A stretch of DNA of 27,878 bases from NCBI GenBank assembly GCA_964600035.1, contig CAZRIB010000005.1:1-27878 (forward strand), written 5' to 3'. The DNA comes from an uncultured Ardenticatenaceae bacterium. Lineage in GTDB: Bacteria; Chloroflexota; Anaerolineae; Promineifilales; Promineifilaceae. Position numbers and translations under genes: made by a program. Below, one piece after another: positions 50 to 27,837 of this stretch (position 1 is its first letter; each line of letters begins with the position of its first letter). Below the pieces are notes generated by a model. The model had not been told where the DNA came from. It made no database searches and saw nothing but the letters and a program-made list of their open reading frames with translations.

Positions 50-1585
50 GTGGCTCAAATAAGTCGTCGAGAATTTCTAAAATTATTGCCAGCCGTTCCA
101 CTTTTCAAAGTGACATGGCCATACCTGGTTACAGAGGCAGCAAAATATCAGCAAGACCCTAACAGCCCCAACATTCTCTTCCTTATCTTCGACACATTTT
201 CCGCCAAACATATTTCCATGTACGGCTACCAAAGGGAGACCACACCCCACCTGGCTGCATTGGCAGAGCGGGCAACCATCTTCCACAGCCACAGGGCAGC
301 GGCAAACTTCACCTCACCGGGGACATCCTCCATTTTGACCGGAACATACCCCTGGACGCACCGTGCCTTTCATTTGCACGGCCTTGTTAATGAGGCATAT
401 GCTGACAAAAACATCTTTAGTCTGCTGCCAGACCATTACCATAAAGCCGCCTACACCCACAATTTGCTGGTTTTTTCCCTGCTGCACCAATTTCGCAGCC
501 ACGTAGATGATTTGCATAAAACCCGGGAACTGTGTTTGTCTGACACGCAGTTTGCCGACCGCCTTTTCTTTAATGATTACAGCCCGGCATTTTGGGGTGA
601 ATGGCTGGCCCTGCGCGGCGGCGCAACACCGCCATCTTCTTTGTTCCTGTCTATGGTAGATCGGGGACGGCGTTTTTTGAATAAACACCAGATTGAAGCG
701 GAATATGCGGCAGATTACCCGCGCGGTATTCCCAATTTGCACAGCCTGTATTTCCGGCTGGAAGATGCGATTGACTGGATTGGTGAGCAGGCGGCAGGCT
801 TGCCACGGCCGTATTTTGGATACTTCCATCTGCTGCCACCTCATGAACCTTACACCACCCACCGCGACTACATTGATGTATTTGCCGATGGCTGGCAGCC
901 CGTTGAAAAAGAAAAGGGTTTTGTTGGCGAAGGTATTCCACAGGCAAAGCTAAACAAAGAGCGGCGGGCTTATGATGAGTATATTGCTTTTGTGGATGCT
1001 GAAATCGGCCGTTTGTTCGCTAAAATGGAAGCGGATGGCGTGTTGGATAACACCTATGTGGTGTTGACATCCGATCATGGTGAACTGTTTGAGCGCGGCA
1101 TTCGCGGCCATGTGACGCGGGCATTGTATGACCCGCTTTTGCATGTGCCGTTGATGATTGTGAAACCCGGTCAGCAAAAACGGGAGGATGTATTTAGCCA
1201 TACCAGTGCGGTTGATTTGCTGCCTACCTTTTTGCATGTAACCGGCCAGCCCGTTCCAGAGTGGGCAGAAGGGCAGATTTTGCCCACATTTACAGATGCC
1301 GCACCAGACGGTCAACGGCCGACTTTTTCACTTGAGGCAAAAAGTAATGCCAAACAAGGCCCGTTAACCAAAGCGACAGCCACGATGGTAAAGGATGATT
1401 ACAAGCTGATTTACTATTTTGGGTATCGGCCAGGGGAAGAGTTGTATGAGTTGTTTGATTTGAAAAATGACCCTGAGGAGTTGACGAATTTGGTTGATGT
1501 GAAAACGGCCGTATTCGCCGACATGCAGACCGAACTAAAACGTAAAATCGAAAGCGTCAACGAACCATTTGCGCACAAATCCTGA
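50..1585 (+). CDS. Tat-exported sulfatase-like hydrolase/transferase (alkaline phosphatase superfamily)
   Basis: N-terminal SRREFLK twin-arginine motif. It has the PNILFLIFDT metal-binding start, TSPGTSSILTG in place of CxPxRxxxLTG, HLLPPHEPY, VVLTSDHGE and LHVPLMI. GTG start preceded by GGAGCA (39-44). Confidence 0.85.
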   Translation: MAQISRREFLKLLPAVPLFKVTWPYLVTEAAKYQQDPNSPNILFLIFDTFSAKHISMYGYQRETTPHLAALAERATIFHSHRAAANFTSPGTSSILTGTYPWTHRAFHLHGLVNEAYADKNIFSLLPDHYHKAAYTHNLLVFSLLHQFRSHVDDLHKTRELCLSDTQFADRLFFNDYSPAFWGEWLALRGGATPPSSLFLSMVDRGRRFLNKHQIEAEYAADYPRGIPNLHSLYFRLEDAIDWIGEQAAGLPRPYFGYFHLLPPHEPYTTHRDYIDVFADGWQPVEKEKGFVGEGIPQAKLNKERRAYDEYIAFVDAEIGRLFAKMEADGVLDNTYVVLTSDHGELFERGIRGHVTRALYDPLLHVPLMIVKPGQQKREDVFSHTSAVDLLPTFLHVTGQPVPEWAEGQILPTFTDAAPDGQRPTFSLEAKSNAKQGPLTKATATMVKDDYKLIYYFGYRPGEELYELFDLKNDPEELTNLVDVKTAVFADMQTELKRKIESVNEPFAHKS

Positions 1586-1630
1586 AACCAACCTGAGTCA
1601 CCTGACACTTTTTTAACAACAAGGAATGGG

Positions 1631-1737
1631 ACACAGATTGACACAGATAAACTCCGTAATCCGTAATTCGTAATTCGTGTGCTCTACCTCTGGTAACTTC
1701 GTCGGAAAACGGTATACGGACTTCGGGTTACGGGTGC
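1631..1737. repeat. Intergenic tandem repeats: ACACAGAT x2, (C/T)CGTAAT x3.5, TACGG-type inverse units
   Basis: ACACAGATTG ACACAGATAA (1631-1650), CCGTAAT CCGTAAT TCGTAAT TCGT (1654-1678) and TACGGACTTCGGGTTACGGG (1715-1734). The last matches the reverse complement of 23404-23421 at 16/18 nt. Confidence 0.8.
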
Positions 1738-1771
1738 TAGATACCAACAAAACAAGAGGAAATTCGGTAAT

Positions 1772-2554
1772 ATGGTAGCCAATTTAAGAAACCTGTATCA
1801 CTATCGAGAAATGCTCGGCATGTGGATCTTCCGTGAGATTCGCGTGCGTTACAAACAATCCTTTTTAGGCGCGGCCTGGGCTATTTTGCAGCCATTGGTA
1901 CTCATGCTCATGTTTACCCTGGTTTTTTCAGTCATGGCGCGCTTCCCCACAGATGGCATTCCATACCCCATCTTTTCCTACACCGCCCTGCTGCCCTGGA
2001 CACTGTTTGCCACATCCGTCAGTTTTGGTGTGTCATCGCTCATCAACAACATGACGCTGGTGACAAAAACGTACTTCCCCAGGGAAGTGCTGCCGATGGG
2101 TGTCATTGGTGCGGCGCTGTTTGATTACCTGATCGCGTCGTCCATTTTCATTGCCATGCTCATCTATTACCAAATTCCGCTGACAATTCACTTTTTGTGG
2201 ATTCCTGTCTTTTTGGTGGTTCAAATTTTCTTGATGATGGGCATTATTTTACTGGGATCGGCCGTAACGGTGTTTTACCGTGATGTGCGTTTTGTGGTGC
2301 CGCTGCTGGTGCAGTTGTGGCTCTATGCCACGCCTATCATTTACCCGGTAACGCTTGTTCCAGAGGCGTATCGCACGTTGTATATGCTTAACCCGATGGC
2401 GGGCATTGTGGAATCTTACCGGCAGGTAATCTTGCGTGGGCAGCCGCCGAATGCGCTGGATTTGGGTCTGGCTGCGGCCGTTTCCGTTAGCCTGTTTGTG
2501 GTGAGTTACATCATTTTTAAGAAACTGGAAGTACGCTTTAACGACATCATATAA
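1772..2554 (+). CDS. wzm: ABC-2 type polysaccharide export permease (Wzm)
   Basis: REIRVRYKQSFLGAAWAILQPL, YATPIIYP and LNPMAGIVESYR motifs; about six TM segments; adjacent to Wzt. Confidence 0.93.
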   Translation: MVANLRNLYHYREMLGMWIFREIRVRYKQSFLGAAWAILQPLVLMLMFTLVFSVMARFPTDGIPYPIFSYTALLPWTLFATSVSFGVSSLINNMTLVTKTYFPREVLPMGVIGAALFDYLIASSIFIAMLIYYQIPLTIHFLWIPVFLVVQIFLMMGIILLGSAVTVFYRDVRFVVPLLVQLWLYATPIIYPVTLVPEAYRTLYMLNPMAGIVESYRQVILRGQPPNALDLGLAAAVSVSLFVVSYIIFKKLEVRFNDII

Positions 2555-2561
2555 AATGTGA

Positions 2562-2623
2562 CAGGTGGCAGGTGGCAGGTGGCAGGTGGCAAGGAACATG
2601 ACCTGCCACCTGCCACTTGCCAC
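2562..2623. repeat. Heptamer (CAGGTGG)n tandem repeat in inverted arrangement forming a 23-bp hairpin
   Basis: CAGGTGG x4 (2562-2589) followed by ACCTGCC ACCTGCC ACTTGCC AC (2601-2623). 2566-2588 pairs with 2601-2623 with one G:T, leaving a 12-nt loop. Confidence 0.92.
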
Positions 2624-2675
2624 GTACTTTGCTTTAATCGTTAATCATCAATCTTTGTTTTTGAAGGAATTATCT

Positions 2676-3953
2676 ATGAAACCTGCGGTACGATTTGAAA
2701 ATGTATCGAAGAAGTATGTCTTGGGAACCGGGCATTCCAGCCTGGGCGCATTAATTAAAACGCCGGTCAAACGGCTGTTGGGACGTCCTGTGCCGGAACC
2801 CCAGGTGTTGTGGGCGTTGAAAGATGCTTCGTTCGATATTGAACCGGGTAAGGCTTTGGGTTTGATTGGGCCAAATGGCTCTGGCAAGACGACTTCGCTG
2901 AAGCTGCTCTCTAAAATTACGTTTCCGACGTCGGGGCGCATTTCGGTAAACGGCCGTATCTCCGCACTCATCGAACTAGGGGCAGGCTTCCATCCAGACC
3001 TCACCGGGCGCGAAAACGTCTACCTCAACGCCACCATATTAGGCATGAAACGCCACGAAATTGATGCCCGTTTTGACCGCATCGTAGAATTTTCCGGGCT
3101 GGAGCGATTCATCGACACACCCGTCAAACGGTACTCATCCGGCATGTACGTGCGGCTGGGCTTTTCCGTAGCCGCCCATGTGGAGCCAGACATCTTGCTG
3201 GTAGATGAAGTATTGGCAGTTGGCGACGCCCAATTCCGCCAAAAGTGTGCCCGCCGCATTGAAGAGCTGCAAAAAAAGGGCACAACCATCGTATTTGTTG
3301 CCCACAACCTTTACCTGGTAAAAAGCGTGTGTGATGAAGCCGTCTTTTTGCTAAACGGACAAATTCAGGACAAAGGGCCGGTAGATGACGTAATTGGCAG
3401 CTATGAAAAGTACCTGCATGAGCTGCAAGCCCGTTCATTGGAAGAAGAAAAAGTAGACCCCTTGCGCAGCGACAGACAGCGCGGCGTGACCACAAATTTG
3501 AAGATAACCGGCATTGATGTGTTAAATGAGCAGGGTAAAAAGCCGGAACAGTTCCACCACGATGAACCTGTGGAAATCCGCATTCATTACCAGGCAAAAA
3601 AGAAGCTGGAAAAGCCAAATGTCATTTTGCGCATTCGCCGGGCAGATGGCACAACAGCGGCCATGATTCGCACAGCTGATTATGGGATGGCACTGGATCC
3701 ATTGGAAGATAACGGCACGATTTCTTTGAAAATTGACCCCATTCAGTTGGCGGGCGGGGCTTATCTGATTTCTGCTTCATTGCAGGGGCCGGTGGATGGT
3801 GTTGGATTGGCCTGGGCAGATTCTCGCTGGTTCCAGGTGTCGGGTGTGAGTGTGAGCTTTGAAGAAAGCGGCGGCGTTTTTGTGCCGAATTTGGCGGCTG
3901 CCAAAGTGATCCCCGGGAATGTGAATCCGCGGGGTGAAAGTGTGCGGGTATAA
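2676..3953 (+). CDS. wzt: Polysaccharide export ABC ATPase (Wzt) with C-terminal Wzt_C carbohydrate-binding extension
   Basis: Walker A GPNGSGKTT, signature YSSGMYVRLGF, Walker B ILLVDEVLAVGD, and a ~170-aa C-terminal extension. Start moved to ATG 2676 (after AAGGA) because the ORF-track extension from 2565 only translates an intergenic repeat hairpin. Confidence 0.93.
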   Translation: MKPAVRFENVSKKYVLGTGHSSLGALIKTPVKRLLGRPVPEPQVLWALKDASFDIEPGKALGLIGPNGSGKTTSLKLLSKITFPTSGRISVNGRISALIELGAGFHPDLTGRENVYLNATILGMKRHEIDARFDRIVEFSGLERFIDTPVKRYSSGMYVRLGFSVAAHVEPDILLVDEVLAVGDAQFRQKCARRIEELQKKGTTIVFVAHNLYLVKSVCDEAVFLLNGQIQDKGPVDDVIGSYEKYLHELQARSLEEEKVDPLRSDRQRGVTTNLKITGIDVLNEQGKKPEQFHHDEPVEIRIHYQAKKKLEKPNVILRIRRADGTTAAMIRTADYGMALDPLEDNGTISLKIDPIQLAGGAYLISASLQGPVDGVGLAWADSRWFQVSGVSVSFEESGGVFVPNLAAAKVIPGNVNPRGESVRV

Positions 3954-3959
3954 GGAGCA
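3954..3959 (+). promoter_or_regulatory. Recurrent Shine-Dalgarno variant GGAGCA
   Basis: GGAGCA lies 3-5 nt before the starts at 50 (GTG), 3965 (TTG), 13562 (TTG), 22111 (ATG) and 27241 (ATG), at positions 39, 3954, 13552, 22101 and 27232. Confidence 0.65.
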
Positions 3960-3964
3960 GGCAT

Positions 3965-5659
3965 TTGGCTAACCGGAAAAAGACGTTGTTGGTTGGATTG
4001 GATGCGGCGTGCTGGTCTTTTGTACGGCCGTTACTGGACGCTGGCAAAATGCCCGCCCTTTCTCGTTTAATGGCTGGCGGCACAGCCGGAACGCTGGACT
4101 CTACCATGCCAGCCCTGACACCGGCGGCGTGGTCGTCCATTATTACCGGCAAAAATCCGGGGAAACACGCCATCTTTGACATGACGCGCCGCCGTCCGCA
4201 CAGCTATGAGAGTATGCCGGTAAACGGCCGTATGCGGTTAGGCACACCATTTTGGAAACGGCTCAATGAGGCAGGCCTTCGCGTGGGGCTGGTCAACATT
4301 CCCTTTACCTACCCGCCGGATGAGGTGGCAGGCTTTGTGGTTCCCGGCTTTGGCGCACCGGGGTCTGTGTCCAATTTGGTGTACCCGCGTGAAGCACTGG
4401 CCGATATTGAAGAAAAGTACGGCCGTTACGAACCTGTGGTGTCACCGGAGCTGTTAAGAAGCGGCCGTTACCAGGACATTTACGAAGCCGAAGCCCACCA
4501 TCAGGCCAACCAGGTTGCCATTGCCATTGACCTGGCCGCCAAATACGATGTGGACGTGCTGGCCATCAACCTGATGCTGCTGGACCACATGAACCACAAA
4601 ATGCCCGACATAGAGCGGGTAGAAGCGGCCATTTTGCAGTTGGACAAAGATTTGCAGGCTTTGCTGGATGGCTTTGTGCCGGATAACGTGATGGTCATTT
4701 CTGACCACGGCACGCGGCGGGTAAAAGGGGACTTTTTGCTGCACGTTTGGCTGCGGGACAATGGCTATTCTGTGCAAAAGAAACGCCTGCCGACGGAAAA
4801 AGCGGCCATTGTGAACTGGATTTTTGTGCAGTGGCTGCAGCGTCACCGGGGCTGGTCTGGTTTTGGTGAAAAGGCTGCCCGCTTTTTGCTGCGAAAAATG
4901 GTGGCGGCACTGCCTGCGGGCTGGCTGAAGGGATTTTGGGCGCGGGTAGAGCGGGATATTCCCGGCGCGCAGGTGTATGCCGAATTTAGTGAGGAACTGG
5001 ATTATGAAAAGACGCGGGTTTATCCCGGCGCATCATATTCCAGTGTGTTGTACTTTAATGTGAAAGGGCGCGAGCCGCAGGGTGTGGTTGATCCGGCAGA
5101 GGTGGCGGCGCTGGCGGCGGAGATTCGGCAGAAGTTGACGGCCGTTACCGACCCGGACAGCGGCGAACCCTTGTTTACGGCCGTATACACCGCCGACGAG
5201 CTTTACACAGGTGCGGCCAAAGTCATTGCGCCAGACATCATCATAGACAGCTACGCCGCAAAGTGGAACATTCTCTCCACTTTTCGGCGGGGGGCGCACG
5301 CCGAAGCGCTGCGAGACCGGTATTTTGCCAACAATTTCAAGGATTTTGGGCATCACAGCCGCGATGGCATTTTTGTGTTTGCCGGGGAAGCTTTTCGCAG
5401 TGACGGTTCTTTTGGCACGGCGGGGTCTGTGATGGATGTGCCGGCGACGCTGCTGCATTTGTGTGGTGTGCCTGTGCCGAATGATTGGGACGGCCGTTCC
5501 CTGACTGAGACGTTTAATCCGGCTTTTCTGGCTGCCCATCCTTTGACTTGCCAGCCCGGTGATGCGGAAACGGCCGTGACGTTTGATGATGGGCTGTACA
5601 GTGATGAGGAAAATGACGAGATTTTTAGCCACTTGCGGGCATTGGGTTACGTGGACTAG
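3965..5659 (+). CDS. Alkaline phosphatase family protein (type I phosphodiesterase/nucleotide pyrophosphatase-like)
   Basis: LLVGLDAA, STMPALTPAAWSSIITGKNPGKHAIFD, VMVISDHG, GHHSRDGIF and C-terminal LRALGYVD. TTG start after GGAGCA (3954-3959). Confidence 0.85.
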   Translation: MANRKKTLLVGLDAACWSFVRPLLDAGKMPALSRLMAGGTAGTLDSTMPALTPAAWSSIITGKNPGKHAIFDMTRRRPHSYESMPVNGRMRLGTPFWKRLNEAGLRVGLVNIPFTYPPDEVAGFVVPGFGAPGSVSNLVYPREALADIEEKYGRYEPVVSPELLRSGRYQDIYEAEAHHQANQVAIAIDLAAKYDVDVLAINLMLLDHMNHKMPDIERVEAAILQLDKDLQALLDGFVPDNVMVISDHGTRRVKGDFLLHVWLRDNGYSVQKKRLPTEKAAIVNWIFVQWLQRHRGWSGFGEKAARFLLRKMVAALPAGWLKGFWARVERDIPGAQVYAEFSEELDYEKTRVYPGASYSSVLYFNVKGREPQGVVDPAEVAALAAEIRQKLTAVTDPDSGEPLFTAVYTADELYTGAAKVIAPDIIIDSYAAKWNILSTFRRGAHAEALRDRYFANNFKDFGHHSRDGIFVFAGEAFRSDGSFGTAGSVMDVPATLLHLCGVPVPNDWDGRSLTETFNPAFLAAHPLTCQPGDAETAVTFDDGLYSDEENDEIFSHLRALGYVD

Positions 5660-5665
5660 AACAAA

Positions 5666-6964
5666 ATGGTAACAAAGACAATGGCGGTACAACAGAAAAC
5701 GGCCGTTTCTCCCAAGGCGCTAAAAGTGGCATATGTTATGCAAAACGTCGGCGTCGATCTGGCGTCTGATTTGGGGCAGGTGATTCTTATTCGCCATACG
5801 GTGCAGGAGTTGATGGCACGCGGCCATGATGTGGATGTAATTACGCTGAACGGCCGTGATGTGTTGGGCATTGATGACATTCACTATCCCAAAGAAACAT
5901 GGCAGGCTAAACAAGGTGTTGCCGGGACACGGCCGTTTCGTTGGTTAGAAAGTGCCATTCGCCGCTTGCAGCGCGAAACAAAATTTCCCTATCTGGCCTT
6001 GTTCGACTCCTTCCGCTTTTACCAGGCCACCCGCCGAGCTTTGGCACACTATGACATTTGCCACGAATACGCCGGGCTGCTGAGCGTTGGGGCGGCCTAT
6101 GCCTGCAAAAAATCAGGCAAGCCCTACGTCATCACCGCCGATGCGGACTTACTGTTGGAACACGCCGTTGCCGGTGAGCCGCTGCATGGTATTCAACAAA
6201 AAATGGCGCGTTGGGCGGCCAAAACCAATTACCGGCTGGCCGACAAAATTATTTGTGTCTCTGAACCAGCGCGGAAAAGTCTGGTGAATCATTGGGATGT
6301 AGACCCGGCCAAAATTGAGGTGATTCCCAATGGGGTTGATGTAGCATTGTTTAGCCAGCCAGTGGATAAAACGGCCGTTCGCCGCCAGTGGCACATTGCC
6401 CCAAACGTCCCCGTCATCATGTTTGTGGGCGGATTTCAGCCCTGGCATGGCATTGATGTGCTGGTCAACAGCTTCGCCGACCTGCTGGTTTCCTTTCCGG
6501 ATGCACAACTGCTGCTGGTTGGCGATGGCCCCGCACGCGAAAATATTGAAGCTCTGGTACAATCCCGGCAGTTAAGCAGCAACGTCCACATGACTGGCCG
6601 CATCCCCCACGCTTACATTCCGTCCCTGCTTGCCATCGCTGATGTCGTCACCATTCCCTACCCCCGGCTGCCCAGAGAACTGTGGTTTTCGCCGCTTAAA
6701 CTGTATGAATACATGGCCGCCGGCAAGGCCATTGTGGCTTCACGTGCCGGGCAAATTGGAGAGGTGTTGGTAGACCGGCAAAATGGGTTGTTGGTAGAAC
6801 CGGGCGATGAAGATGCCTTGACGGAAGCAATTGTTACGCTGCTCCGCCATCCTGAACTGCGTGCCAAATTGGGTTTGCGGGCACAGCAGCAGGCTAAAAC
6901 GGAGCATTCCTGGGGCCGTCAGGTGGAGCGTCTGGAAGCGGTGTATTGGGAGATTGTCGGTTGA
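5666..6964 (+). CDS. Glycosyltransferase family 4 (GT-B)
   Basis: VIPNGVD, MFVGGFQPWHGI and FSPLKLYEYMAAGKAIVAS motifs. Confidence 0.92.
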   Translation: MVTKTMAVQQKTAVSPKALKVAYVMQNVGVDLASDLGQVILIRHTVQELMARGHDVDVITLNGRDVLGIDDIHYPKETWQAKQGVAGTRPFRWLESAIRRLQRETKFPYLALFDSFRFYQATRRALAHYDICHEYAGLLSVGAAYACKKSGKPYVITADADLLLEHAVAGEPLHGIQQKMARWAAKTNYRLADKIICVSEPARKSLVNHWDVDPAKIEVIPNGVDVALFSQPVDKTAVRRQWHIAPNVPVIMFVGGFQPWHGIDVLVNSFADLLVSFPDAQLLLVGDGPARENIEALVQSRQLSSNVHMTGRIPHAYIPSLLAIADVVTIPYPRLPRELWFSPLKLYEYMAAGKAIVASRAGQIGEVLVDRQNGLLVEPGDEDALTEAIVTLLRHPELRAKLGLRAQQQAKTEHSWGRQVERLEAVYWEIVG

Positions 6965-7090
6965 AGAGTGAGGATTGAAGATTAAAGATTGAGGATTAAA
7001 GATTAAAAGATTGGAGATTGGGGATTGGGGATGTCTTTAATCGTTAATCATCAATCATCATTCATTAATCATCATTCATTATTCATTATT
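6962..7090. repeat. Heptamer GATTRRR tandem array followed by a T(T/C)A(A/T)TC(A/G) array (STRR-like)
   Basis: GATTGAA GATTAAA GATTGAG GATTAAA GATTAAA..GATTGGA GATTGGG GATTGGG, then TTAATCG TTAATCA TCAATCA TCATTCA TTAATCA TCATTCA TTATTCA. Confidence 0.9.
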
Positions 7091-7107
7091 TACTGGAAAA
7101 GTGTGTC

Positions 7108-8457: not shown

Positions 8458-8575
8458 TTATTGAGTCTGCCGAAAAAACCGCAAAGAGCACAAAGAAACG
8501 CCAGAGAAAAAATTTGTGAAATTCGTGAAATTCGTGGCTTTTTTCGGGGCAGTCATATTTGCACTTTTTAGTTTT

Positions 8576-8656
8576 GGACGCAGATTTTCAGGATTAACGC
8601 AGATTATCTTGCAATTATGTTGACACAATCCTGAGAATCAGCGTTAATCTGCGTCC
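8576..8656. repeat. 81-bp element with 11-bp perfect terminal inverted repeats (GGACGCAGATT)
   Basis: GGACGCAGATT at 8576-8586 and AATCTGCGTCC at 8646-8656. Internal blocks TCAGGATT/AATCCTGA and AACGC(A/T)GATT are also complementary. Confidence 0.75.
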
Positions 8657-19049: not shown

Positions 19050-19874
19050 ATGTTTTCACAAATCGTATCCATAGCAGGGGAAGAACTCCGCTACCAATAC
19101 GTGCAAATTCGTCAAAAATTGACCCAAAACCACCACATACCAGCTAAAGTGCTGGTCAATGGCAGCCCCAAATCGGGCACAACCTGGATGGTGAAATTGA
19201 TTTCGTCTCTACCCGGCTACCGGGAAGTAGGCAATTATCAGGGGGATTTTCAAAAGTATTATCAGAGCGAATCGGGGGATGTCATTCATGGGCATGATCC
19301 GTTTTCTTTGGAATTAAAGCAGATTTTGGCTGAAGCAGGAATCAAGGTTGTGTTGATGGTGCGAGATCCACGTGATCAGTTGGTCTCGCGGATGTTCCAC
19401 ATAAAGCGCAGCCCCAAGCATGTCTGGCATGATCGCATGCAGGATATTGGCGTTGATGAAGCGTTGATGATGTGTATTGAAGGGCGTGAAAATTTACCGG
19501 CTACCAGTCAGGTAATTGCGCTTGCCCAGACGTGGATGGTTCCTGAAGCGGAGATGTTGTGTGTGCGTTATGAAGATATGCTGGCTGATCCGGTGACGCA
19601 TTTTTCCAAGGTGATGCAGTATATTGGCATGGAAGCGGATCATTTGCTGGCGCGGGTGGTGGTGGAGCGTAATCGCTTTGAGCGCCTGTCTGTGGGGAAG
19701 CGTATCTGGCAGCAGCAGCGGCGGCCTGGCCAGGAAGATGCCAACTCTCATTTTCGCAAGGGGATTGCGGGTGACTGGCGTAATTATTTGAAGCCGGAGC
19801 ATATTGCCCGTTTTAAGGAGTTGGCTGGCCGCCAGTTGATTGAGTTGGGCTATGAACAGGATATGGATTGGTAG
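19050..19874 (+). CDS. Sulfotransferase (Sulfotransfer_1-like)
   Basis: 5'-PSB GSPKSGTTW, 3'-PB MVRDPRDQLVS, and C-terminal RKGIAGDWRNY matching the RKGxxGDWKNxF motif. Confidence 0.9.
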   Translation: MFSQIVSIAGEELRYQYVQIRQKLTQNHHIPAKVLVNGSPKSGTTWMVKLISSLPGYREVGNYQGDFQKYYQSESGDVIHGHDPFSLELKQILAEAGIKVVLMVRDPRDQLVSRMFHIKRSPKHVWHDRMQDIGVDEALMMCIEGRENLPATSQVIALAQTWMVPEAEMLCVRYEDMLADPVTHFSKVMQYIGMEADHLLARVVVERNRFERLSVGKRIWQQQRRPGQEDANSHFRKGIAGDWRNYLKPEHIARFKELAGRQLIELGYEQDMDW

Positions 19875-19880
19875 CCTGTG

Positions 19881-20798
19881 ATGGTGAAGCTTTCTGTTGT
19901 GATTGTTAGCTGGAATACGGCCGATTTGCTGCGGGCATGCTTGCGCTCTGTTTATGAGCATCCGCCAACGGTGACGTTTGAGGTTTGGGTGGTGGATAAT
20001 GCGTCGCATGATGGTAGTGCGGAGATGGTGCGGCGTGAGTTTCCGCAGGTGAAACTGGTGGCGAAGGATGTGAATGGGGGGTTTGCGGCAGGAAATAATG
20101 AGGCGCTGCCGCTGTGTGCCGGGGAGTATGTGCTGTTGTTGAATCCTGATACGGTGGTGAAGCCGAATGCGCTGCAAGCGTTGGTGGATTTTTTGGATGA
20201 AACGCCGGATGCAGGCGCGGCGGGGTCGATGCTGTTGAACCCGGATGGTTCTTTGCAGCCGTCGGCTTTTCCGGCGCCGACGCTGCGGCGGGAGTTGTGG
20301 CGGTTGTTTCATTTGGACAGGATACGGCCGTATGGCATTTACCACATGCAGCAGTGGGACACGGCCGTTCCCCGTGAAGTAGACGTACTGCAAGGGGCAT
20401 CCTTGCTCATTCGCCGCGACATTTTGAACCAGATTGGCTTGTTCGACACAACCTACTTTATGTACTCCGAAGAAGTCGATTTATGCCGTCGGCTGCAGTT
20501 GGCTGGCTGGCGGTTGTATTGGGTTCCTGCTTCTCGCGTGGTGCATTATGGCGGGCAAAGCACCCGGCAAATTGCAGAGCAGATGTTTATTCAGCTTTAC
20601 CGGGGCAAGCTGCTTTATTTTCGCAAGCATTACGGCCGTTTTCATGCGTGGGCATACAAAGCAGTTTTGGCACTGGCTTCCGTGGCGCGGCTGGCACTCA
20701 CCCCGCTGGTCGTGGTGCAGTCCGCCGAAAAACGGCAGCAAAGCCTGACATTGGCGCGGTATTATGCCCATCTTGTCAAAGCCATTCCCTCCTTTTAA
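19881..20798 (+). CDS. Glycosyltransferase family 2 (WbbL-like)
   Basis: LSVVIVSWN, VVDNASHDGS, GFAAGNN, LLLNPD and YFMYSEEVDLCRR. ATG 19881 or GTG 19878. Confidence 0.92.
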   Translation: MVKLSVVIVSWNTADLLRACLRSVYEHPPTVTFEVWVVDNASHDGSAEMVRREFPQVKLVAKDVNGGFAAGNNEALPLCAGEYVLLLNPDTVVKPNALQALVDFLDETPDAGAAGSMLLNPDGSLQPSAFPAPTLRRELWRLFHLDRIRPYGIYHMQQWDTAVPREVDVLQGASLLIRRDILNQIGLFDTTYFMYSEEVDLCRRLQLAGWRLYWVPASRVVHYGGQSTRQIAEQMFIQLYRGKLLYFRKHYGRFHAWAYKAVLALASVARLALTPLVVVQSAEKRQQSLTLARYYAHLVKAIPSF

Positions 20799-22066
20799 TG
20801 AACGTTATGACCGAATCCAAGATGAAAATTTTGTTTTTGACCCAAATTATTCCATATCCCCCGGATGCCGGGCCGCGTGTCAAAACGTGGCACGTGCTGC
20901 GCTATCTTATTGAGCGAGGGCATGAGGTGACGCTGGCTTCTTTTGTGCGGCCAGATGAGGAGCGCCATGTACCTGTGTTGGCGGAGCTGTGCCATGCGGT
21001 GCATACCGTTCCCATTCGCCGGTCGCGGGTGGCTGATGTGGGTTTTTGGCTGCGCAGTCAGGTGACGAGACGGCCGTTTTTGATTGAACGGGATGATTTG
21101 CCGGGTATGCGCCAATTGGTGCGCCGCCTGCTGGCGGAGACACCTTTTGATATTGTGCATGCCGACCAACTGACGATGACGCAGTTTGCGCTGGATGCGC
21201 TGGAAATGGGGGAGAAACGGCCGTACACGATTTTCGACGCCCACAACGCCACCTGGACAATTTCGGCGCGTATGGCAGAAAACATGCCCTGGTTTCTTAG
21301 ACCTGTTGTCAAGCTGGAAACTGCCCGTATTCAAAAATATGAGGCCATGTTGGTCGAGCAGTTAGACCATACGATGGTGGTGATTGCCCCTGATCGGGAA
21401 GCGCTGCTGGCTGCAGCCGGAAACGGCCGTGCCGCCCGGTTAGCCCCAAAAATCTCCGTTATTCCCATTGCCGTTGACACAAACGTTTTGCAGCCTGTCA
21501 AACGCAGCCCGGCATCGCTCAACATTTTGACATTGGGGTCATTAAATTATCCGCCCAACGCCGATGGCATCCGCTGGTTTGTGCGGGACGTTTTTCCGCT
21601 TATCCGGCAGGAAGTACCGGATGTTACATTGACCGTCATCGGGAAAAACCCGCCTGCTGATTTTGTGCGCTGGGCTGAACAGGAACCGGCCGTTTTTGAT
21701 GTGACAGGCTACGTGGAAGATTTGACGCCCTACATGGAAAAGGCCGCCTTGATGGTTGTGCCGGTGCGGGCTGGCGGCGGTATGCGTGTGCGTTTACTGG
21801 AGGCTTTTTCCCGGGCTATGCCCACTGTGACCACCACGATTGGTCTGGAAGGGATTGAAGCGGAATCCGGGCGGGAGGTGTTGGTGGCAGATTCGCCGGA
21901 AGAGTTTGCGCGGGCGGTGCTTCATTTGCTGCGTAACCCTGCTTTGCAAGATCATTTGGCGGAACACGGCCGTATCCTGGCACAAAAGAAATATGACTGG
22001 CGTGTTGTCCTGGCAAAAATGGATGCCGTCTATCAAAAAGCCAGACAGCCATTCTCTAACCATTAA
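20798..22066 (+). CDS. Glycosyltransferase family 4
   Basis: MKILFLTQIIPYPPDAG, TLGSLNYPPNADG and GGGMRVRLLEAF. Start at ATG 20798 (TAATG overlap) or 20807/20822; the ORF-track extension from 20483 is rejected. Confidence 0.9.
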   Translation: MNVMTESKMKILFLTQIIPYPPDAGPRVKTWHVLRYLIERGHEVTLASFVRPDEERHVPVLAELCHAVHTVPIRRSRVADVGFWLRSQVTRRPFLIERDDLPGMRQLVRRLLAETPFDIVHADQLTMTQFALDALEMGEKRPYTIFDAHNATWTISARMAENMPWFLRPVVKLETARIQKYEAMLVEQLDHTMVVIAPDREALLAAAGNGRAARLAPKISVIPIAVDTNVLQPVKRSPASLNILTLGSLNYPPNADGIRWFVRDVFPLIRQEVPDVTLTVIGKNPPADFVRWAEQEPAVFDVTGYVEDLTPYMEKAALMVVPVRAGGGMRVRLLEAFSRAMPTVTTTIGLEGIEAESGREVLVADSPEEFARAVLHLLRNPALQDHLAEHGRILAQKKYDWRVVLAKMDAVYQKARQPFSNH

Positions 22067-22110
22067 TCTTTCATCCATCAATCATCAACCTTTATTCACA
22101 GGAGCAACAG

Positions 22111-23403
22111 ATGCTTAACCGCGTGTGGGAAAATCCTCGCCGAACATTAACAGCCATCATTATCGTGGCGGTGCTGCTGCGGGTGGGGGCAGCGCTGTAT
22201 ATTGGCAACACCATCGAAGCGCTACCCGGCATTTTTGATGAAGTGTCTTACCATACGCTGGCGCTGCGGGTGCTGGATGGGCATGGTTTTTCTTTTGGTG
22301 AACGGTGGTGGCCGGCAACGGCCGCAAACGCCCCAACCGCACACTGGTCCTTTTTGTACACGCTGTACCTTGCCGGAATTTATGCCCTGGTTGGCGAATC
22401 GCCTTTGGTGGCGCGGGTGATTCAGGCGGTGTTGGTGGGGATTGCCATGCCCTGGCTGGCGTTTCGGTTGGCACTGCTGGTGTTTGCGCAGTGGGGGCAA
22501 AAGTATGCGGAAAAGGTTGGGCTGGCGGCGGCGGCGGTAACGGCCGTGTACATTTATCTCTTTTACTATGCGGCTGCACTCATCACCGAAAGTTTCTACA
22601 TCACCGCCATCATGGCTTCGTTCTACTTTGCCTTTCGTATCCAGAAGGCCCAAAATGCCCGGCTGTCTGATTGGGTGTGGCTGGGTGTTTGTTTAGGGGT
22701 GACTGTGCTGCTGCGGCAGTTGTTTTTGTTGTTTGTGCCGTTTTTGCTGCTGTGGCTGTGGTGGGCAGTGCGCCCGTCGTTGTGGCGGCTGGTCTTGCCT
22801 CTTGTTCTCATCGGTATGATGGTGGCCCCTTTTACCGTGCGTAATCAGCGCGTATTCGGCCGTTTTGTCCTGCTCAATACCAACTCCGGGTATGCTTTCT
22901 TTTGGGGCAACCACCCCCGGTACGGCACAAAATTCATTCCTATTTTGCCTTCCCGCGAATATTACGAAATGATTCCCGATGAACTGTTGGCGCAAGGGCT
23001 AAATGAAGCGGAACTGGAGTCTGAACTTTTATCTTTGGGCTTGGGGTTTGTTTTTGATGATTTCGGCCGTTACATCAAACTGTCATTAAGTCGCATTCCT
23101 GCTTACTTTGTTTTCTGGCCGTCGTCACAATCATCTACCATTTCCAACATTTCCCGCGTGGGCAGTTTTGGCCTGTTTTTGCCTTTCATGGTGTATGGGC
23201 TGGTGTTGGGTTTGCGCAAACGGGCTGCTTCATTTGCCGATTGGCTGCGTATGCCGCAAACGCTGCTGGTGCTGTTCATGTTGTTTTACACAGCCCTGCA
23301 CGTGCTTACGTGGACACTGATTCGTTATCGGATTCCAATTGATGCGATATTGATTTTGTATGCCGGTTTAGCGCTGGTAACAATTGAAGAAAAAATCTTT
23401 TAG
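22111..23403 (+). CDS. ArnT/PMT (GT39-like, GT-C) membrane glycosyltransferase
   Basis: Polytopic, with IFDEVSY acidic loop, ITESFY, LLRQ, PFTVRN and RYRIP. GGAGCA at 22101-22106. Confidence 0.78.
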   Translation: MLNRVWENPRRTLTAIIIVAVLLRVGAALYIGNTIEALPGIFDEVSYHTLALRVLDGHGFSFGERWWPATAANAPTAHWSFLYTLYLAGIYALVGESPLVARVIQAVLVGIAMPWLAFRLALLVFAQWGQKYAEKVGLAAAAVTAVYIYLFYYAAALITESFYITAIMASFYFAFRIQKAQNARLSDWVWLGVCLGVTVLLRQLFLLFVPFLLLWLWWAVRPSLWRLVLPLVLIGMMVAPFTVRNQRVFGRFVLLNTNSGYAFFWGNHPRYGTKFIPILPSREYYEMIPDELLAQGLNEAELESELLSLGLGFVFDDFGRYIKLSLSRIPAYFVFWPSSQSSTISNISRVGSFGLFLPFMVYGLVLGLRKRAASFADWLRMPQTLLVLFMLFYTALHVLTWTLIRYRIPIDAILILYAGLALVTIEEKIF

Positions 23404-23468
23404 CGTAATCCGAAGCCCGTACACCCGTGATTGGGATGCAGATAACGGGTTACGGGCAACGGATTACG
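23404..23468. terminator. Long imperfect hairpin between convergent genes; candidate bidirectional terminator built from CCGTAAT/TTACGG heptamers
   Basis: CGTAATCCGAAGCCCGTACACCCGTGAT (23404-23431) pairs with ATAACGGGTTACGGGCAACGGATTACG (23442-23468). It starts immediately after the + strand stop (23403) and ends 8 nt before the - strand stop (23477). There is no clear U-tract. Confidence 0.55.
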
Positions 23469-23476
23469 GATACCGT

Positions 23477-24589
23477 CTACATACCAAAACAGTAATTTGT
23501 AAAGAAGCAGATGCGCCAGCTTATCCAGCCGATTTGTGAGAACAGGTACCACAGGTATGCGCCAATGAGCAGCACTCCGGCGTAACGGCCGATTGCCCAG
23601 CGCCGTACGATTAACAAAAACAACAGCGCTATCACCGTTGCAAACAAGAGAATAACAGAAGATTCCAGGTTTTCTGTAACAACCTGCATATTTTCACCGC
23701 GCCACAAAATGATGAACACCCAGGGCAGGCCCAGCCCAATGGCAATATCGAAGATGTTGGAGCCGACAGCATTGGCAATGGCCATGTCGCCTTGTCCTTT
23801 TCTGGCAACGACAATGGAACTCATCAGGTCGGGAATGCTGGTTCCGGCGGCCAGAATGGTGAGAGCGATGATGACTTCTGGTACACCGATGGCGTGGGCA
23901 ATTTGTACGGCCGATTCCACCATGAGGTGTGAAAGCAAGGCCAGAAAAATGATGGAGACGGCAAAGTTGAAGATGAGGAGATGCGGCCGTTTCCGCAAAT
24001 CGGCAAAAAAGAGCGACAACGTTTTGTCCAGCACATTGCGCCATGTCCACCCGCTGGCACGCAGGGCTTGTTGGGGACTTTCCTCCTCCTCCTCATTTTG
24101 CGCATTATCCGCCTCAATTTCATAAGGCAGCCACTTCTTCCACAGGCCAAACGAGAACAAGTAAACGACATACAAGCTCACATACATGAGCGCGTCAACC
24201 AGAGTGATGGTGCCATCTCGAAACGTAAACAGCAGCAGCAAGATGCAGACAATGTAAAAAATCAGGTCACGGATGACAGGCTGCCATGTCAGCACAGCCC
24301 GTTTAACCAATGCCGAAGCCCCAATAATGACCAAAATGTTAAAAATGGCTGACCCCACAATTGTGCCAGCACCCATTGCCTGCTGTTCCTGCACCCGAAA
24401 CAGCGCCAAAATGGAAACAAACAACTCCGGTGCAGATGAGCCGACTGCCATGAACGTAGCCCCGGCAATATCGGAGGAAAGTTTCAGCCGGTCAGAGATA
24501 ATTTCCAGCGTTTCAACAAAATAGACTTCTACAACCTGGGCGAGCAGGTAAAAAGCCAGTAACAGTTCCAAAATCCACAGGATGATCAT
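23477..24589 (-). CDS. Calcium/sodium antiporter (CaCA family, NCKX-like)
   Basis: Alpha-1 repeat GATFMAVGSSAPELF...GTIVGSAIFNIL and alpha-2 repeat ILAAGTSIPDL...GDMAIANAVGSNIFDI. Two 5-TM halves joined by an acidic loop (NEEEEES). Confidence 0.9.
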   Translation of the reverse strand: MIILWILELLLAFYLLAQVVEVYFVETLEIISDRLKLSSDIAGATFMAVGSSAPELFVSILALFRVQEQQAMGAGTIVGSAIFNILVIIGASALVKRAVLTWQPVIRDLIFYIVCILLLLFTFRDGTITLVDALMYVSLYVVYLFSFGLWKKWLPYEIEADNAQNEEEEESPQQALRASGWTWRNVLDKTLSLFFADLRKRPHLLIFNFAVSIIFLALLSHLMVESAVQIAHAIGVPEVIIALTILAAGTSIPDLMSSIVVARKGQGDMAIANAVGSNIFDIAIGLGLPWVFIILWRGENMQVVTENLESSVILLFATVIALLFLLIVRRWAIGRYAGVLLIGAYLWYLFSQIGWISWRICFFTNYCFGM

Positions 24590-24955
24590 GATTACTTTTT
24601 TGCTTCCTTGTTTGTTGGTGTGTGCCTGTTTTGTACGGCGAGATTTTTACAGGGTCAGAAGGATACACGCAAATTGAAAAACACAAAAACTGAAGGCGGG
24701 TTGGTGTAAGCCGGTTGGTAAGAAAGGATCGTTACTATTCCACTGTAAAAGCCAACAATGATAAATAGCTTGGTTACATGTTGAACTTTTTTCTGAAATG
24801 GGGGAGCCATCGTGAACGGCTGGGCAAACCACAAAAGGTGTTTGAGTGTGAGAACATCTTTTTCCTTGTGGGCTGCTTGTGTAATTGGCAAAAAATCCCG
24901 GGTGTTTTTGTGCTAATTGCATCACACATTGTTGGCGCCATGAATTTATCTGCTT

Positions 24956-26182
24956 ATGGATGTACTCTTTATTGTTCCCTATGTGCCCAATTTGGTGAGG
25001 ACACGCCCCTATAACTTTATTCGAGCATTGAGTGAGCGCGGTAACCGGGTGACGGTGTTGACTGTGCGCGCCAGTGAAGCGGATGAGGCGGATTTGGCTG
25101 CGCTGCGAAAGATGGTGTATGCGGTGGAGGCGGTGTCTTTGCCTGTTTGGCGTTCCCTGCTGAATTGTTTGCCGGCTTTGTTGTCGGGTGTGCCTTTGCA
25201 AACACGCTTTTCGTGGGATGCGGGTCTGTTTTCGCGGTTAAACGGCCGTTTCCCCTTTGACGTGGTTCATGTCGAACACCTTCGTGGCGTGCGCTATGCC
25301 CTGCATCTCAAAAAACACACCCAACTACCCGTTGTATGGGACAGCGTAGACTGCATTACCCATTTGTTTAAGCAGGCCGCTGCACAAAGCAAAAACAATA
25401 TGCTTCGCTGGCGCAGCCGCTTTGAATTGGGGCGCACAGAGCGGTATGAGCGGTGGCTTTTGGACAAATTTGACCAAATTTTGGTGACGTCGCATCTGGA
25501 TAGGGAAGCGATGCAGTCGCTGAACCCCCAACAGCCAGCACCCATTACGGTGGTTCCCAATGGGGTGGATTTGAACTATTTTCGGCCAGACACGGCCGTT
25601 ACCCGGCAAGAAAAATCACTCGTTGTCAGCGGCAAGATGAGCTACCACGCCAATATCAGCATGGTGCTGCATCTTGTGGAAAAAATTATGCCGCATGTGT
25701 GGCAAGAACAGCCAGACGTGACCCTCACCATTGTGGGCAAAGACCCGACCAAAGAGGTGGTGGCATTGGCTGAACATCCAAACATTACAGTAACGGGGAC
25801 GGTGCCGGAGATACGGCCGTATCTCCAACAAGCCGCCATCGCCCTCACCCCACTCACTTACGGCGCAGGTGTCCAAAACAAAGTACTGGAAGCAATGGCC
25901 TGCGGCACACCCGTTGTCAGCACAACACGCGCCATCAAACCGCTGGGTGTCCAGCCGGGGCGCGCTCTCCTGGCTGCCGATGACCCGGCCCAATTTGCCC
26001 GGCACGTCCTGGAACTGCTGGCAAACCCGGCACAACGCGCCCAAATCGGCCGTGCCGCCAGAGCATACGTAGAACAGAACCACAACTGGCACACACTGGC
26101 TGGAGACCTGGAGCAAATTTACCAACAAGCAAAACATCAACACAACCCGGTATTCAAACAAGCCGCCACAGCCGCAAAATAG
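24956..26182 (+). CDS. Glycosyltransferase family 4
   Basis: VVPNGVDLNYF, VSGKMSYHANI and GAGVQNKVLEAMACGTPVV. Confidence 0.92.
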   Translation: MDVLFIVPYVPNLVRTRPYNFIRALSERGNRVTVLTVRASEADEADLAALRKMVYAVEAVSLPVWRSLLNCLPALLSGVPLQTRFSWDAGLFSRLNGRFPFDVVHVEHLRGVRYALHLKKHTQLPVVWDSVDCITHLFKQAAAQSKNNMLRWRSRFELGRTERYERWLLDKFDQILVTSHLDREAMQSLNPQQPAPITVVPNGVDLNYFRPDTAVTRQEKSLVVSGKMSYHANISMVLHLVEKIMPHVWQEQPDVTLTIVGKDPTKEVVALAEHPNITVTGTVPEIRPYLQQAAIALTPLTYGAGVQNKVLEAMACGTPVVSTTRAIKPLGVQPGRALLAADDPAQFARHVLELLANPAQRAQIGRAARAYVEQNHNWHTLAGDLEQIYQQAKHQHNPVFKQAATAAK

Positions 26183-26253
26183 GTCATTTTCAACGAATTA
26201 GAATCGTTGCAATTAGTTTGTGTAATGGAACAATAGCAAAGGTGTAGCAGTCC

Positions 26254-27231
26254 ATGATCATTGTGCAATCCCCATTAAGAGTTAGTTTGTTCGGCGGCGG
26301 AACCGATTTCGCCGACTTTTACAAGGAACATGGCGGGTGTGTCCTGTCCTCCGCCATCGACAAATTCATCTTCGTCACCATAAAACAGCGTTTTGATGAC
26401 AAAATTCGCGTTGGCTACACACGAACAGAAATGGTAGACAGCATCGATGAAATTCAACACGAATTGATTCGAGAAGCACTCCGGGTTACGGGCATCCAAA
26501 AAGGGGTGGAAATTACCACAATGGGCGACATCCCCTCCGAAGGTTCGGGGCTGGGTTCTTCCAGCACAGTTACCGTAGGGGCTTTGCATGCCATGTATGC
26601 CTACCAAAAGGAATTGGTGCTGTCGGAGCGGTTGGCGCGGGAAGCCTGCTACATTGAAATTGAAAAATTAGGAAAGCCCATTGGTATCCAAGACCAATAC
26701 ATTGCGGCTTATGGTGGTTTGCGTTTTATGGAATTTATGCCGGATGGGCGGGTAGTTGCTAATCGTGCTGTCTTTGATGACCATACGCTGCGCCGTTTGA
26801 ATGAAAACCTGCTTTTGTTCTTTACAGGTGTTACGCGCAAAGCCGATAACATTCTTTCAGAACAAAAAAGCAACATTCAGGATAAAACATCAATTTTGTG
26901 CCAGATGAAATCCATTGCTTACACAGCGTTTCAGGAACTGCAAAAAGGGCATTTTCGGGCGATTGGTGAGCTTTTGGATGAGAGCTGGCAGTTGAAGAAG
27001 CGGCTGGCCAGCCAAATTAGCAACGGTGTGCTGGATGAGATGTATGAAACGGCAAAGGCGGCCGGGGCAATTGGCGGCAAAATTTCAGGCGCGGGCGGCG
27101 GCGGTTTTTTGTTGGTTTATGTGCCTAAAACACATCATGAGGATGTGCGGCAGGCGTTGAGTCATTTGCAAGAATTACCGTTTCGATTGGGGCAGGATGG
27201 CAGTAAGGTCATTTTTGATTATCAACGATGA
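26254..27231 (+). CDS. hddA: D-glycero-alpha-D-manno-heptose-7-phosphate kinase (GHMP kinase)
   Basis: [31 protein letters not shown] and [12 protein letters not shown]; adjacent to gmhA. Confidence 0.85.
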
Positions 27232-27240
27232 GGAGCAGCG

Positions 27241-27837
27241 ATGAATCACGTAAGACATTATTTTTCGGAAATAACAGAGACTTTGACGCGCATTGATGAA
27301 GGCCCGATTAATCAGGTGATTGGTTTGCTGCATGAGGCACGGGTAAACGGCCGTCAAGTGTTCATCATGGGCAACGGCGGCAGTGCATCCACCGCATCCC
27401 ATTTTGTATGCGACCTGGCCAAAAACACCCGCCAGCCAGATTGGCCGCATTACCGCGTTATCGGCCTTACAGACAATATGGCTATCTTTTCTGCCTATGC
27501 CAACGATGAAGGGTATGAAAACGTCTTTGCCATGCAGCTCGCCAATCTGGTACAGCCGGGAGATGTCGTTATCGGCATTTCAACCAGCGGCAACTCGCAG
27601 AATGTATTGCGTGGCATTGCCCTGGCCAATGAAAAAGGGGCTACAACAGTCGGTTTTACCGGTTTCGATGGCGGTAAATTGGCAGGAATGGTTGATATTC
27701 ATTCCCACACACCCAGTTATTGCATTGAACACGTCGAAGATATTCACTTGATGCTGGAGCATTTAATTACCAAAGTGCTGCGGGAGATGACAGAAACCGT
27801 TGCTGTTGAGCAATGTCTTGGCACATCTGTGTCATAA
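27241..27837 (+). CDS. gmhA: Phosphoheptose (sedoheptulose-7-phosphate) isomerase, SIS domain
   Basis: [44 protein letters not shown] and EDIHLMLEH. Confidence 0.88.

Follow-up and report, generated by a model that had tools for sequence, protein, structure and literature searches.

A highly iterated palindrome of the HIP1 kind in a family of Chloroflexota, with a mirror-symmetric strand-composition footprint at its copies

We analysed a stretch of 27,878 nucleotides (nt), hereafter the window, from contig CAZRIB010000005.1 (C5) of assembly GCA_964600035.1 (labelled G000), and the octamer ACGGCCGT, which a preliminary description of this DNA had singled out as a highly iterated palindrome (HIP). 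The word is dispersed through the window in 53 exact copies from 805 to 27354, one per 525 bp, and these are a subset of 8,329 copies genome-wide. By contrast, 100 dinucleotide-preserving shuffles of the window contained 0.46 +/- 0.67 copies, and no more than 3 in any shuffle. Our counts reproduced the 53 copies and the roughly 0.5 expected that had been reported before, together with the assumed GC content of about 52% (51.8% in the window) and the estimate that at least 14 copies extend to the 10-bp palindrome AACGGCCGTT (14 of 53). The window holds 22 further CGGCCG cores rather than the approximately 18 first counted, although they are mostly one-off variants, as had been claimed: 20 of the 22 depart from the octamer at an outer position only (TCGGCCGT and ACGGCCGA, six each; GCGGCCGT, four; ACGGCCGC, three; CCGGCCGT, one). 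All 53 copies lie within open reading frames (ORFs) of at least 120 amino acids and use all three frames, which again agrees with the preliminary description. By crude ORF calls, 24 read T-A-V, 18 x-G-R and 11 R-P; the difference from the earlier split of 26/17/10 arises because ORF calls overlap.

Positions 50-27837 of the window encode a large sulfated-glycan cluster with three AlkP/sulfatase-family genes, three sulfotransferases, about eight glycosyltransferases (GT4/GT2), an ABC-2/Wzt exporter, a Wzy-like polymerase and a BNR/Asp-box protein. The first copy of the word (805..812) lies in a sulfatase-family gene (50-1585) and the last (27347..27354) in an ORF at 27241-27837. The densest stretch, with seven copies in 800 bp (5138..5936; copies at 5138, 5177, 5490, 5570, 5699, 5850 and 5929), spans the boundary between a phosphodiesterase-family gene and a glycosyltransferase gene, and two copies lie 18 bp apart (7387..7412) in a PMT_2-family glycosyltransferase gene. 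The window is an ordinary sulfated surface polysaccharide cluster and has no special relation to ACGGCCGT. Over its whole length (1..27878) runs a sawtooth in strand composition that is pinned to the copies: on C5, the GC skew at third codon positions is +0.47 at 5-100 nt 5' of a copy, -0.22 at 5-100 nt 3' of a copy and +0.07 far from copies.

The preliminary description had allowed that the enrichment might be confined to this locus or might disappear once codon and amino-acid usage were corrected for, and had proposed genome-wide counts under codon-aware and Markov models. We found that the excess persisted in all of these models. G000, from a filamentous bacterium, is a fragmented metagenome-assembled genome (MAG) of 4.35 Mb in 706 contigs (longest, 31 kb), with 52.3% GC and 97% completeness; genes were called with a crude ORF caller, and the presence or absence of a gene in a MAG is uncertain. 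ACGGCCGT is its commonest 8-mer, at 1.9 copies per kb (1,916 per Mb). The excess is 106-fold when judged by base composition, and 50-fold and 29-fold when judged by Markov models of order 2 and order 3, respectively. The word accounts for 73% of all CGGCCG sequences in the genome, and HIP1 of cyanobacteria (GCGATCGC) has only 16 copies there. Every contig of at least 5 kb carries at least 0.68 copies per kb, and none of 498 five-kb segments is empty. The density is 1.98 per kb in coding and 1.46 per kb in non-coding DNA, and the nearest-neighbour spacing is close to exponential (mean 478 bp, coefficient of variation 0.97), with a mild deficit below 50 bp.

Coding sequences contain 7,340 copies, against 797 +/- 21 when synonymous codons were shuffled within genes (9-fold) and 122 when codon order was shuffled (60-fold). 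The former shuffle retains the protein sequence and codon usage of each gene, and hence already part of the imprint of the word. The copies divide over the three coding frames as 4086/2356/1068. The tripeptide T-A-V occurs 4,072 times, compared with 582 expected (7-fold), and 98% of its occurrences are spelled ACGGCCGT, compared with 12% expected; G-R spelled GGCCGT and R-P spelled CGGCCG are four times as frequent as codon usage predicts. ACGGCCGT thus overrides synonymous codon choice and, at thousands of places, the amino-acid sequence. There is practically no probability that no element exists and that the word merely reflects codon or amino-acid usage, a repeat family confined to one locus or a fault of assembly. 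We found nothing in support of such an explanation; the codons ACG, GCC, GGC and CGT are moderately common. Against it stand the excesses over both shuffles, the non-coding density and the occurrence of the word in every contig and in about 90 independently assembled genomes. The codon-aware shuffles rule out a codon or amino-acid artefact, and the presence of copies in every contig rules out a local repeat or island. ACGGCCGT is very probably a genuine DNA-level element of the HIP type.

G000 also contains a second family of over-represented words (CTAATCTC/GAGATTAG, AATCTCTAA and GAGATTGG/CCAATCTC; 200-565 copies, 7-12-fold over the order-3 Markov model). These fit spacer arrays of GATTRRR heptamers, such as the one at 6962-7090, which the preliminary description likened to the STRR (short tandemly repeated repetitive) sequences of cyanobacteria.

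The sequence around the copies forms a decaying palindromic halo, GGAA-ACGGCCGT-TTCC, with A at position -1 in 60% and at -2 in 46% of copies and G at -3 and -4 in about 51% each. Flank positions -k and +k are complementary at the rate expected of independent half-sites (ratios 0.94-1.04 for k = 1-20), which rules out selection for a hairpin or cruciform. The two halves behave as separate half-sites, as they would for a dimeric reader. The outer positions of the octamer accept G and T, which are approximately 6.8-fold enriched, whereas inner one-off variants occur at 0.17-1.7 times background, with the two centre positions most depleted. One-off variants number 7-47 at the centre, 473-589 for the tolerated outer bases and 109-142 for the disfavoured outer C/G. 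HIP1 shows the same pattern of variants and is least variable at its centre (Elhai, PMC4390886).

We next considered the lineage. The best match of the G000 RecA (78%) is to a MAG of 'Candidatus Promineifilaceae bacterium', followed by Anaerolineae and Anaerolineales MAGs; judged by this protein, the family of G000 is Promineifilaceae-like (Anaerolineae, Chloroflexota), in line with the earlier impression of a Chloroflexota-like lineage. G000 has two full-length recA genes on different contigs (C154:1015-1797 and C152:2942-3724; E = 1e-136 each), which may be paralogues or part of the 3.4% contamination of the assembly. The preliminary description had also proposed mapping the word across Chloroflexota, and in 160 species genomes of the family of G000 we found a lineage-patterned distribution. 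ACGGCCGT occurs at approximately 1-2.2 copies per kb in 18 genera and is lower or variable in a few others. In two genera it is replaced by the reversed palindrome TGCCGGCA, with 8,850 copies in G015 and 3,600-6,800 in G090-G094. Several genera are enriched in neither word, contrasts in density occur within genera (g32, g37 and g40), and in the sister family and other families of the class the word is at background. The word is thus a lineage trait of most genera in the family. G015, one of the genomes with TGCCGGCA, consists of two contigs (3.76 and 1.11 Mb) and is nearly devoid of GGCC, with 29 occurrences in 80 kb (loci L118-L121); restriction pressure specific to GGCC, which would be incompatible with ACGGCCGT, might bear on the use of the other word in that lineage.

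A codon alignment of rpoB from five genomes, a small sample with 8 site columns, placed the sites in ungapped columns at conserved Y-G-R, L-P-A and V-P-A. Two ACGGCCGT sites at conserved Y-G-R are common to G000 and G034, and the remaining genomes spell these residues otherwise; two TGCCGGCA sites, at L-P-A and V-P-A, are common to G091 and G015. At one G034 site the protein was altered to T-A-V. In this alignment, sites therefore arise by point substitution at the DNA level, without insertions or deletions. Once present, copies are kept far more faithfully than the neighbouring sequence: between G118 and G120, one congeneric pair from a sister genus that does not include G000 itself (92% identity over 12 kb), 22 of 22 sites were identical, compared with 54% of all 8-mer windows (p ~1e-6).

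The sawtooth seen on C5 extends to the genome. On either strand, the run that leads 5'->3' toward a copy is rich in G and T and the run that leaves it is rich in C and A, in a mirror-symmetric pattern that reaches 100-300 nt. GC skew oriented toward the copy declines with distance, from +0.24 (9-12 nt) through +0.17 (21-30 nt) and +0.085 (76-100 nt) to +0.046 (201-300 nt). Over 5-100 nt it is +0.122 +/- 0.0015, with G exceeding C at 82% of individual sites, and the AT skew on the strand toward the copy is about -0.07. As controls, we used 20 plain palindromes and three variant patterns of GGCC/CGGCCG, each without a HIP within 300 nt. Near the site these were flat, including CGGCCG with both outer positions wrong; the one exception was [GT]CGGCCGT, altered on one outer side, which gave a weak signal. 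When genes were read along their coding strand, the GC skew at third codon positions (GC3 skew) was +0.42/+0.38 on the 5' side of a copy and -0.32/-0.38 on its 3' side, both over 5-30 nt; the flip was smaller at positions 1 and 2, suggesting a mutational or conversion bias and not protein selection. When each contig is compared with its own value far from any copy, the skew departs by about +/-0.25 on both sides of the copies, which disfavours a one-sided origin of the skew from the lagging strand or primase.

Skew of the same polarity surrounds ACGGCCGT in G034 and TGCCGGCA in G091 (+0.32, +0.18, +0.12) and, more weakly, in G015, whereas the HIP-poor G014 has no skew at any palindrome. The half-sites of TGCCGGCA, TGCC|GGCA, have a G/C bias opposite to that of ACGG|CCGT, so a pre-existing skew cannot create the word; the explanation that a skewed context generates it is ruled out by the shared flank polarity. 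The footprint means that, in some DNA transaction, the strand leading to the site and the strand leading away from it fare differently. An excess of G over C together with T over A would be the signature of cytosine deamination on DNA that is often single-stranded.

A second lead came from recombination genes. In a scan for RecB/AddAB nuclease domains, a full addB-addA pair was present only in the HIP-poor G014. The word-rich G000, G034, G091 and G015 had no large PDDEXK_1 protein, only PD-(D/E)XK ORFs of 176-294 amino acids, and AddB was not found in G000 in a search with the G014 protein. We then searched the family with the G014 AddB and set the matches against word counts by hand, the relatives among these genomes not being independent. 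Intact AddB was found in 2 of 75 genomes with at least 900 copies per Mb of either word (two more have remnants of 109 and 216 amino acids), in 8 of 15 with 300-900 copies per Mb and in 28 of 70 with fewer than 300. Word-rich genomes thus differ from all others (2/75 versus 36/85; Fisher p = 4e-10), as do word-rich genera from the others (AddB in 2/20 versus 11/16; Fisher p = 4e-4), although both values ignore kinship and overstate the significance. In genus g37, six AddB-bearing species have 345-567 copies per Mb, and four species with at least 921 per Mb lack an intact gene. A parallel pattern is present in cyanobacteria: recC occurs only in marine Prochlorococcus/Synechococcus, and recBCD is incomplete in Synechocystis 6803, Anabaena 7120, S. 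elongatus 7942 and PCC 7002 (Cassier-Chauvat et al., PMC5101192), while the marine picocyanobacteria are the HIP1-poor group (PMC4390886; PMC13756078). We did not find a connection between recBCD and HIP1 stated in the cyanobacterial literature that we examined.

The word is also present on viral contigs. Of 80 IMG/VR loci fetched, 17 carry ACGGCCGT at 0.8-3.7 copies per kb. Their viral nature was partly checked: in two word-bearing contigs the only genes found were ParA-like, transglycosylase, FtsK-like and PAPS-reductase-like, so that these may be phages or other mobile elements. Such copies would be expected if incoming linear DNA gains from the word, as in the control-site reading that we favour below. 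They also bear on the possibility that ACGGCCGT is a DNA-uptake signal, in which a competence receptor prefers DNA with the word and the word accumulates by molecular drive, as proposed for the uptake signal sequences (USS) of Pasteurellaceae, the DNA uptake sequences (DUS) of Neisseriaceae and HIP1. Uptake sequences are not known to be enriched in phages or recently acquired DNA, whereas here the density of the word on viral and mobile contigs exceeds that in the host genome, which this model would not predict. A density of about 1-2 per kb, copies in all frames with a proteome imprint, and a strict core with a weak halo all resemble USS/DUS, as do the genus-level 'dialects' (ACGGCCGT or TGCCGGCA) and the word-free genera, and imported single strands with a 3' end at the site would yield the observed polarity of skew. 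However, a GC3 skew of +/-0.4 seems large as a by-product of transformation. ComEC is present in G000 and in 148 of 160 family genomes, regardless of the word; it is consistent with uptake but, being near-universal, fails to separate HIP-rich from HIP-poor genomes and was rejected as a discriminator. We found no PilT-family ATPase in five word-rich and five word-poor well-assembled genomes. In cyanobacteria, HIP1 raises transformation efficiency (bioRxiv 10.1101/2024.09.10.611283) and correlates with type IV pilus genes and ComEA. On balance, we consider an uptake signal unlikely.

The preliminary description had expected a link to a methyltransferase, and this expectation was not borne out. 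Profile searches of G000 detected no PF00145 (5-methylcytosine, m5C) enzyme, no Vsr and no PF02384 match. Among its N6/N4- or D12-type methyltransferases, one adjoins a BanI-like nuclease, and a D12 enzyme adjoins an EcoRV-like nuclease, a restriction-modification pair that fits the strong avoidance of GATATC in this genome. A Dam-like D12 gene is followed by a 578-amino-acid ORF without a Pfam match, and GATC is strongly avoided. A DUF1156-like protein and two solitary genes (L002 and L003) make up the remainder. We rejected the D12 enzymes as HIP methylases on account of these neighbours, and L002 because it is sporadic (16 of 160 family genomes). L003 encodes a protein of 431 amino acids with a partial N6/N4 methyltransferase domain, adjoining murJ (G000:C92, L003:1411-2706). 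Its close orthologues (58-78% identity), several with in-frame stops, occur in 11 genomes, all 11 of them ACGGCCGT-rich, but it is absent from most word-rich genera (0 of 15 in g44 and 0 of 7 in g9), and we rejected it as well. Across the family, m5C enzymes occur in 60 of 160 genomes, unrelated to the word, and are missing from many well-assembled word-rich genomes, and the combination of an m5C methyltransferase with Vsr was not found. No methyltransferase tracks ACGGCCGT among these genomes. Two further proteins did not discriminate word-rich from word-poor genomes: MutL, found in all five genomes tested, including the HIP-poor G014, and a 270-amino-acid PD-(D/E)XK nuclease considered as a site nuclease, which is in 136 of 160 genomes, word-rich and word-poor alike. 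Several 6-bp palindromes are nearly absent from the 4.35 Mb of G000 (GGGCCC 16, CCTAGG 11, GAGCTC 14, CTCGAG 11, GTCGAC 17 and TTTAAA 79), and GATC and CTAG occur at 0.28 and 0.09 times expectation; this scarcity of 6-bp palindromes suggests long exposure to many restriction systems.

These results bear on two repair-based explanations. In the first, methylation-linked biased repair of the very short patch (VSP) type, near-cognates would be converted to the word by a T:G mismatch endonuclease, active on ACGGCTGT/ACGGCCGT heteroduplexes, in concert with a cytosine methyltransferase whose target is CGGCCG or GGCC. The core does contain the EagI (CGGCCG) and HaeIII (GGCC) words, and the orthologues of the C92 methyltransferase are confined to ACGGCCGT-rich genomes. 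However, that enzyme is absent from most such genera, G000 lacks PF00145 and Vsr, and m5C enzymes are missing from many well-assembled HIP-rich genomes. Furthermore, C->T one-off variants are not specially depleted compared with other inner variants, and a skew that reaches 300 nt is not predicted, making this explanation very improbable. The second, proposed for HIP1 by Elhai, is strand discrimination in mismatch repair: a hemimethylated HIP would be nicked on the new strand, with excision proceeding from the nick. Sites would be needed every few hundred bases, and the mean spacing is 478 bp; 5'->3' excision that began at a nick in the word would account for the polarity of the skew; MutL is present; and the centre is least variable, as in HIP1 (PMC4390886). 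Yet none of the methyltransferases follows the word in its distribution, the HIP-poor G014 has MutL just as well, and selection per site would be very weak, although sites override amino acids. This explanation also leaves the density on viral contigs and the AddAB pattern unaccounted for, and we regard it as quite unlikely.

The reading that we favour, tentatively, is that the HIP is a palindromic, two-way control site for recombination or end processing, read by a dimeric protein. In this mechanism, the strand whose 3' end points at the site would repeatedly be left single-stranded and undergo C->T deamination. Such exposure could come about by 5'->3' strand removal that starts at the site, or by a travelling nuclease that from the site onward leaves the 3'-ended strand intact, in the way of RecBCD/AddAB at Chi; a palindromic site would act from both sides. 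On a broken copy, alleles without the site would be degraded and recopied and alleles with it spared, so that the word would spread by biased gene conversion. This conversion advantage could saturate a polyploid genome, override protein sequence and reward mobile DNA that carries the word. The system would stand in for AddAB-Chi, with which the frequent absence of AddAB from word-rich genomes would fit. HIP1 boosts recombination in a manner described as 'reminiscent of Chi' (bioRxiv 10.1101/2024.09.10.611283). A broader and more speculative claim, which we consider doubtful, is that HIPs, HIP1 included, form the cis-acting part of a hitherto undescribed system for recombination or end processing in bacteria, one that replaces RecBCD/AddAB-Chi. 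If this were true, a dimeric reader would stop or start 5'->3' removal at the palindrome from either side, the sawtooth skew would be the scar of the 3'-ended single strands so left, and biased gene conversion in polyploid filaments would carry the word to saturation. It would also explain HIP1 of cyanobacteria, among which the HIP1-poor marine picocyanobacteria are those that keep recBCD.

Several observations weigh against a control site of this kind. No site-reading protein was identified among the candidates examined, and this, together with viral copies that lack a footprint, weakens every explanation considered here. Skew around the dense viral copies is nearly flat (+0.04, +0.03; n = 298), and around HIP1 in plasmid pAQ7 of Picosynechococcus PCC 7002 it is at most faint (+0.025 +/- 0.011 over 5-60 nt, from 217 copies within 150 kb at the start of this 186-kb plasmid); accumulation of the word and the footprint are therefore separable. 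We infer deamination as the cause of the skew from polarity alone. If the site itself were cut, classical double-strand-break repair would predict erosion of the word rather than accumulation. The link between the word and AddAB is a statistical one in which shared ancestry is a confounder, and it has exceptions both ways. The word-rich G118 and G099 have resident addB genes that are themselves word-rich, which rules out contamination, whereas in the word-free sister family AddB is found in 0 of 7 genomes, and many HIP-poor genomes likewise have none. The absence of AddAB is thus neither sufficient nor strictly necessary, and its loss as a sufficient cause is ruled out by the sister family. 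Finally, Chi sites lack symmetry, are oriented with respect to replication and have a density 5-20 times lower, whereas ACGGCCGT is a perfect palindrome. In G118, the 7.8-kb addB-addA interval (L261, G118:C18:25000-44999) has no match in G120, where contigs C433 and C432 break or diverge at its edges; addAB there may lie in an indel or island.

HIP1 has been without an accepted function since 1993, and the occurrence of such an element in a second phylum makes the question comparative and testable. In this family the word is a different one, a sister word (TGCCGGCA) is in use, many relatives have no word and mobile elements carry copies at high density. The family also supplies two leads, the site-anchored, mirror-symmetric footprint and the near-exclusion between word-rich genomes and AddAB. 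In the proteomes concerned, Thr-Ala-Val, Gly-Arg and Arg-Pro strings by the thousand owe their presence to the DNA word rather than to the function of the protein, which matters for alignments, conservation scores and k-mer binning of wastewater and soil MAGs. The literature that could be searched describes HIPs from cyanobacteria only; no paper found there treats ACGGCCGT as a palindrome of this type or reports a HIP from Chloroflexi. Candidate HIP-like words in other lineages are TTTCGAAA in Saccharibacteria, TTCCGGAA/TGCCGGCA in Bacteroidota and GCTCGAGC in a Deinococcus relative.

Compared with known systems, ACGGCCGT shares with Chi that it is an over-represented, taxon-specific short word, and sparing of the 3'-ended strand at Chi matches the skew polarity seen here; phages, moreover, adopt the Chi of their host. 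In addition to the differences in symmetry and abundance given above, the reader of Chi, AddAB/RecBCD, is absent from G000 and from 73 of 75 word-rich genomes. At mammalian meiotic hotspots, skew changes sign at the centre of recombination initiation, although these hotspots are driven by PRDM9 and their motifs erode rather than accumulate. USS and DUS resemble the word in having about one copy per kb, a genic location with a peptide imprint, clade dialects and a strict core, but they are non-palindromic and need a known receptor and pilus, and in the present family it is mobile and viral contigs that are word-enriched.

The closest likeness is to HIP1 (GCGATCGC; Robinson 1995; PMC4390886; PMC5861425). 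By the sequence-level properties that we tested, all of which it shares, ACGGCCGT is a HIP of the HIP1 kind and a second case, outside cyanobacteria; the preliminary description's idea of an independent HIP with a different core is thus upheld. Both are hyperabundant octamer palindromes, genic in all frames and present in spacers; both spread by substitution without indels, are conserved beyond control words and deviate least at the centre; and both have a palindromic extension and are replaced or lost in related lineages. At 1.9 per kb and an observed/expected ratio of 106, ACGGCCGT is within the range of HIP1, which has approximately 0.3-2.7 copies per kb and ratios of 55-228 (PMC4390886; PMC5861425). 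The two differ in word and phylum and in the strong sawtooth skew at ACGGCCGT. They differ also in what goes with the word: HIP1 has been linked in function to orphan methyltransferases and to genes for type IV pili or competence (Rodriguez-Cruz 2026 for the latter), whereas here no orphan methyltransferase tracks the word, G000 has no m5C enzyme and no PilT was found in the ten genomes searched. Alternative HIPs are known within cyanobacteria (GGGATCCC, TCGATCGA, CAGGCCTG, GGCGCC and rCCGGy; Elhai 2015; Xu 2018; PMC13756078). These are exceptions within a HIP1-rich phylum and have been tied by their authors to methyltransferases, a tie that we did not find for ACGGCCGT and TGCCGGCA, both of which occur outside cyanobacteria, but they likewise represent a lineage-specific swap of one palindrome for another, and they have GGCC or CCGG cores, as do ACGGCCGT and TGCCGGCA.

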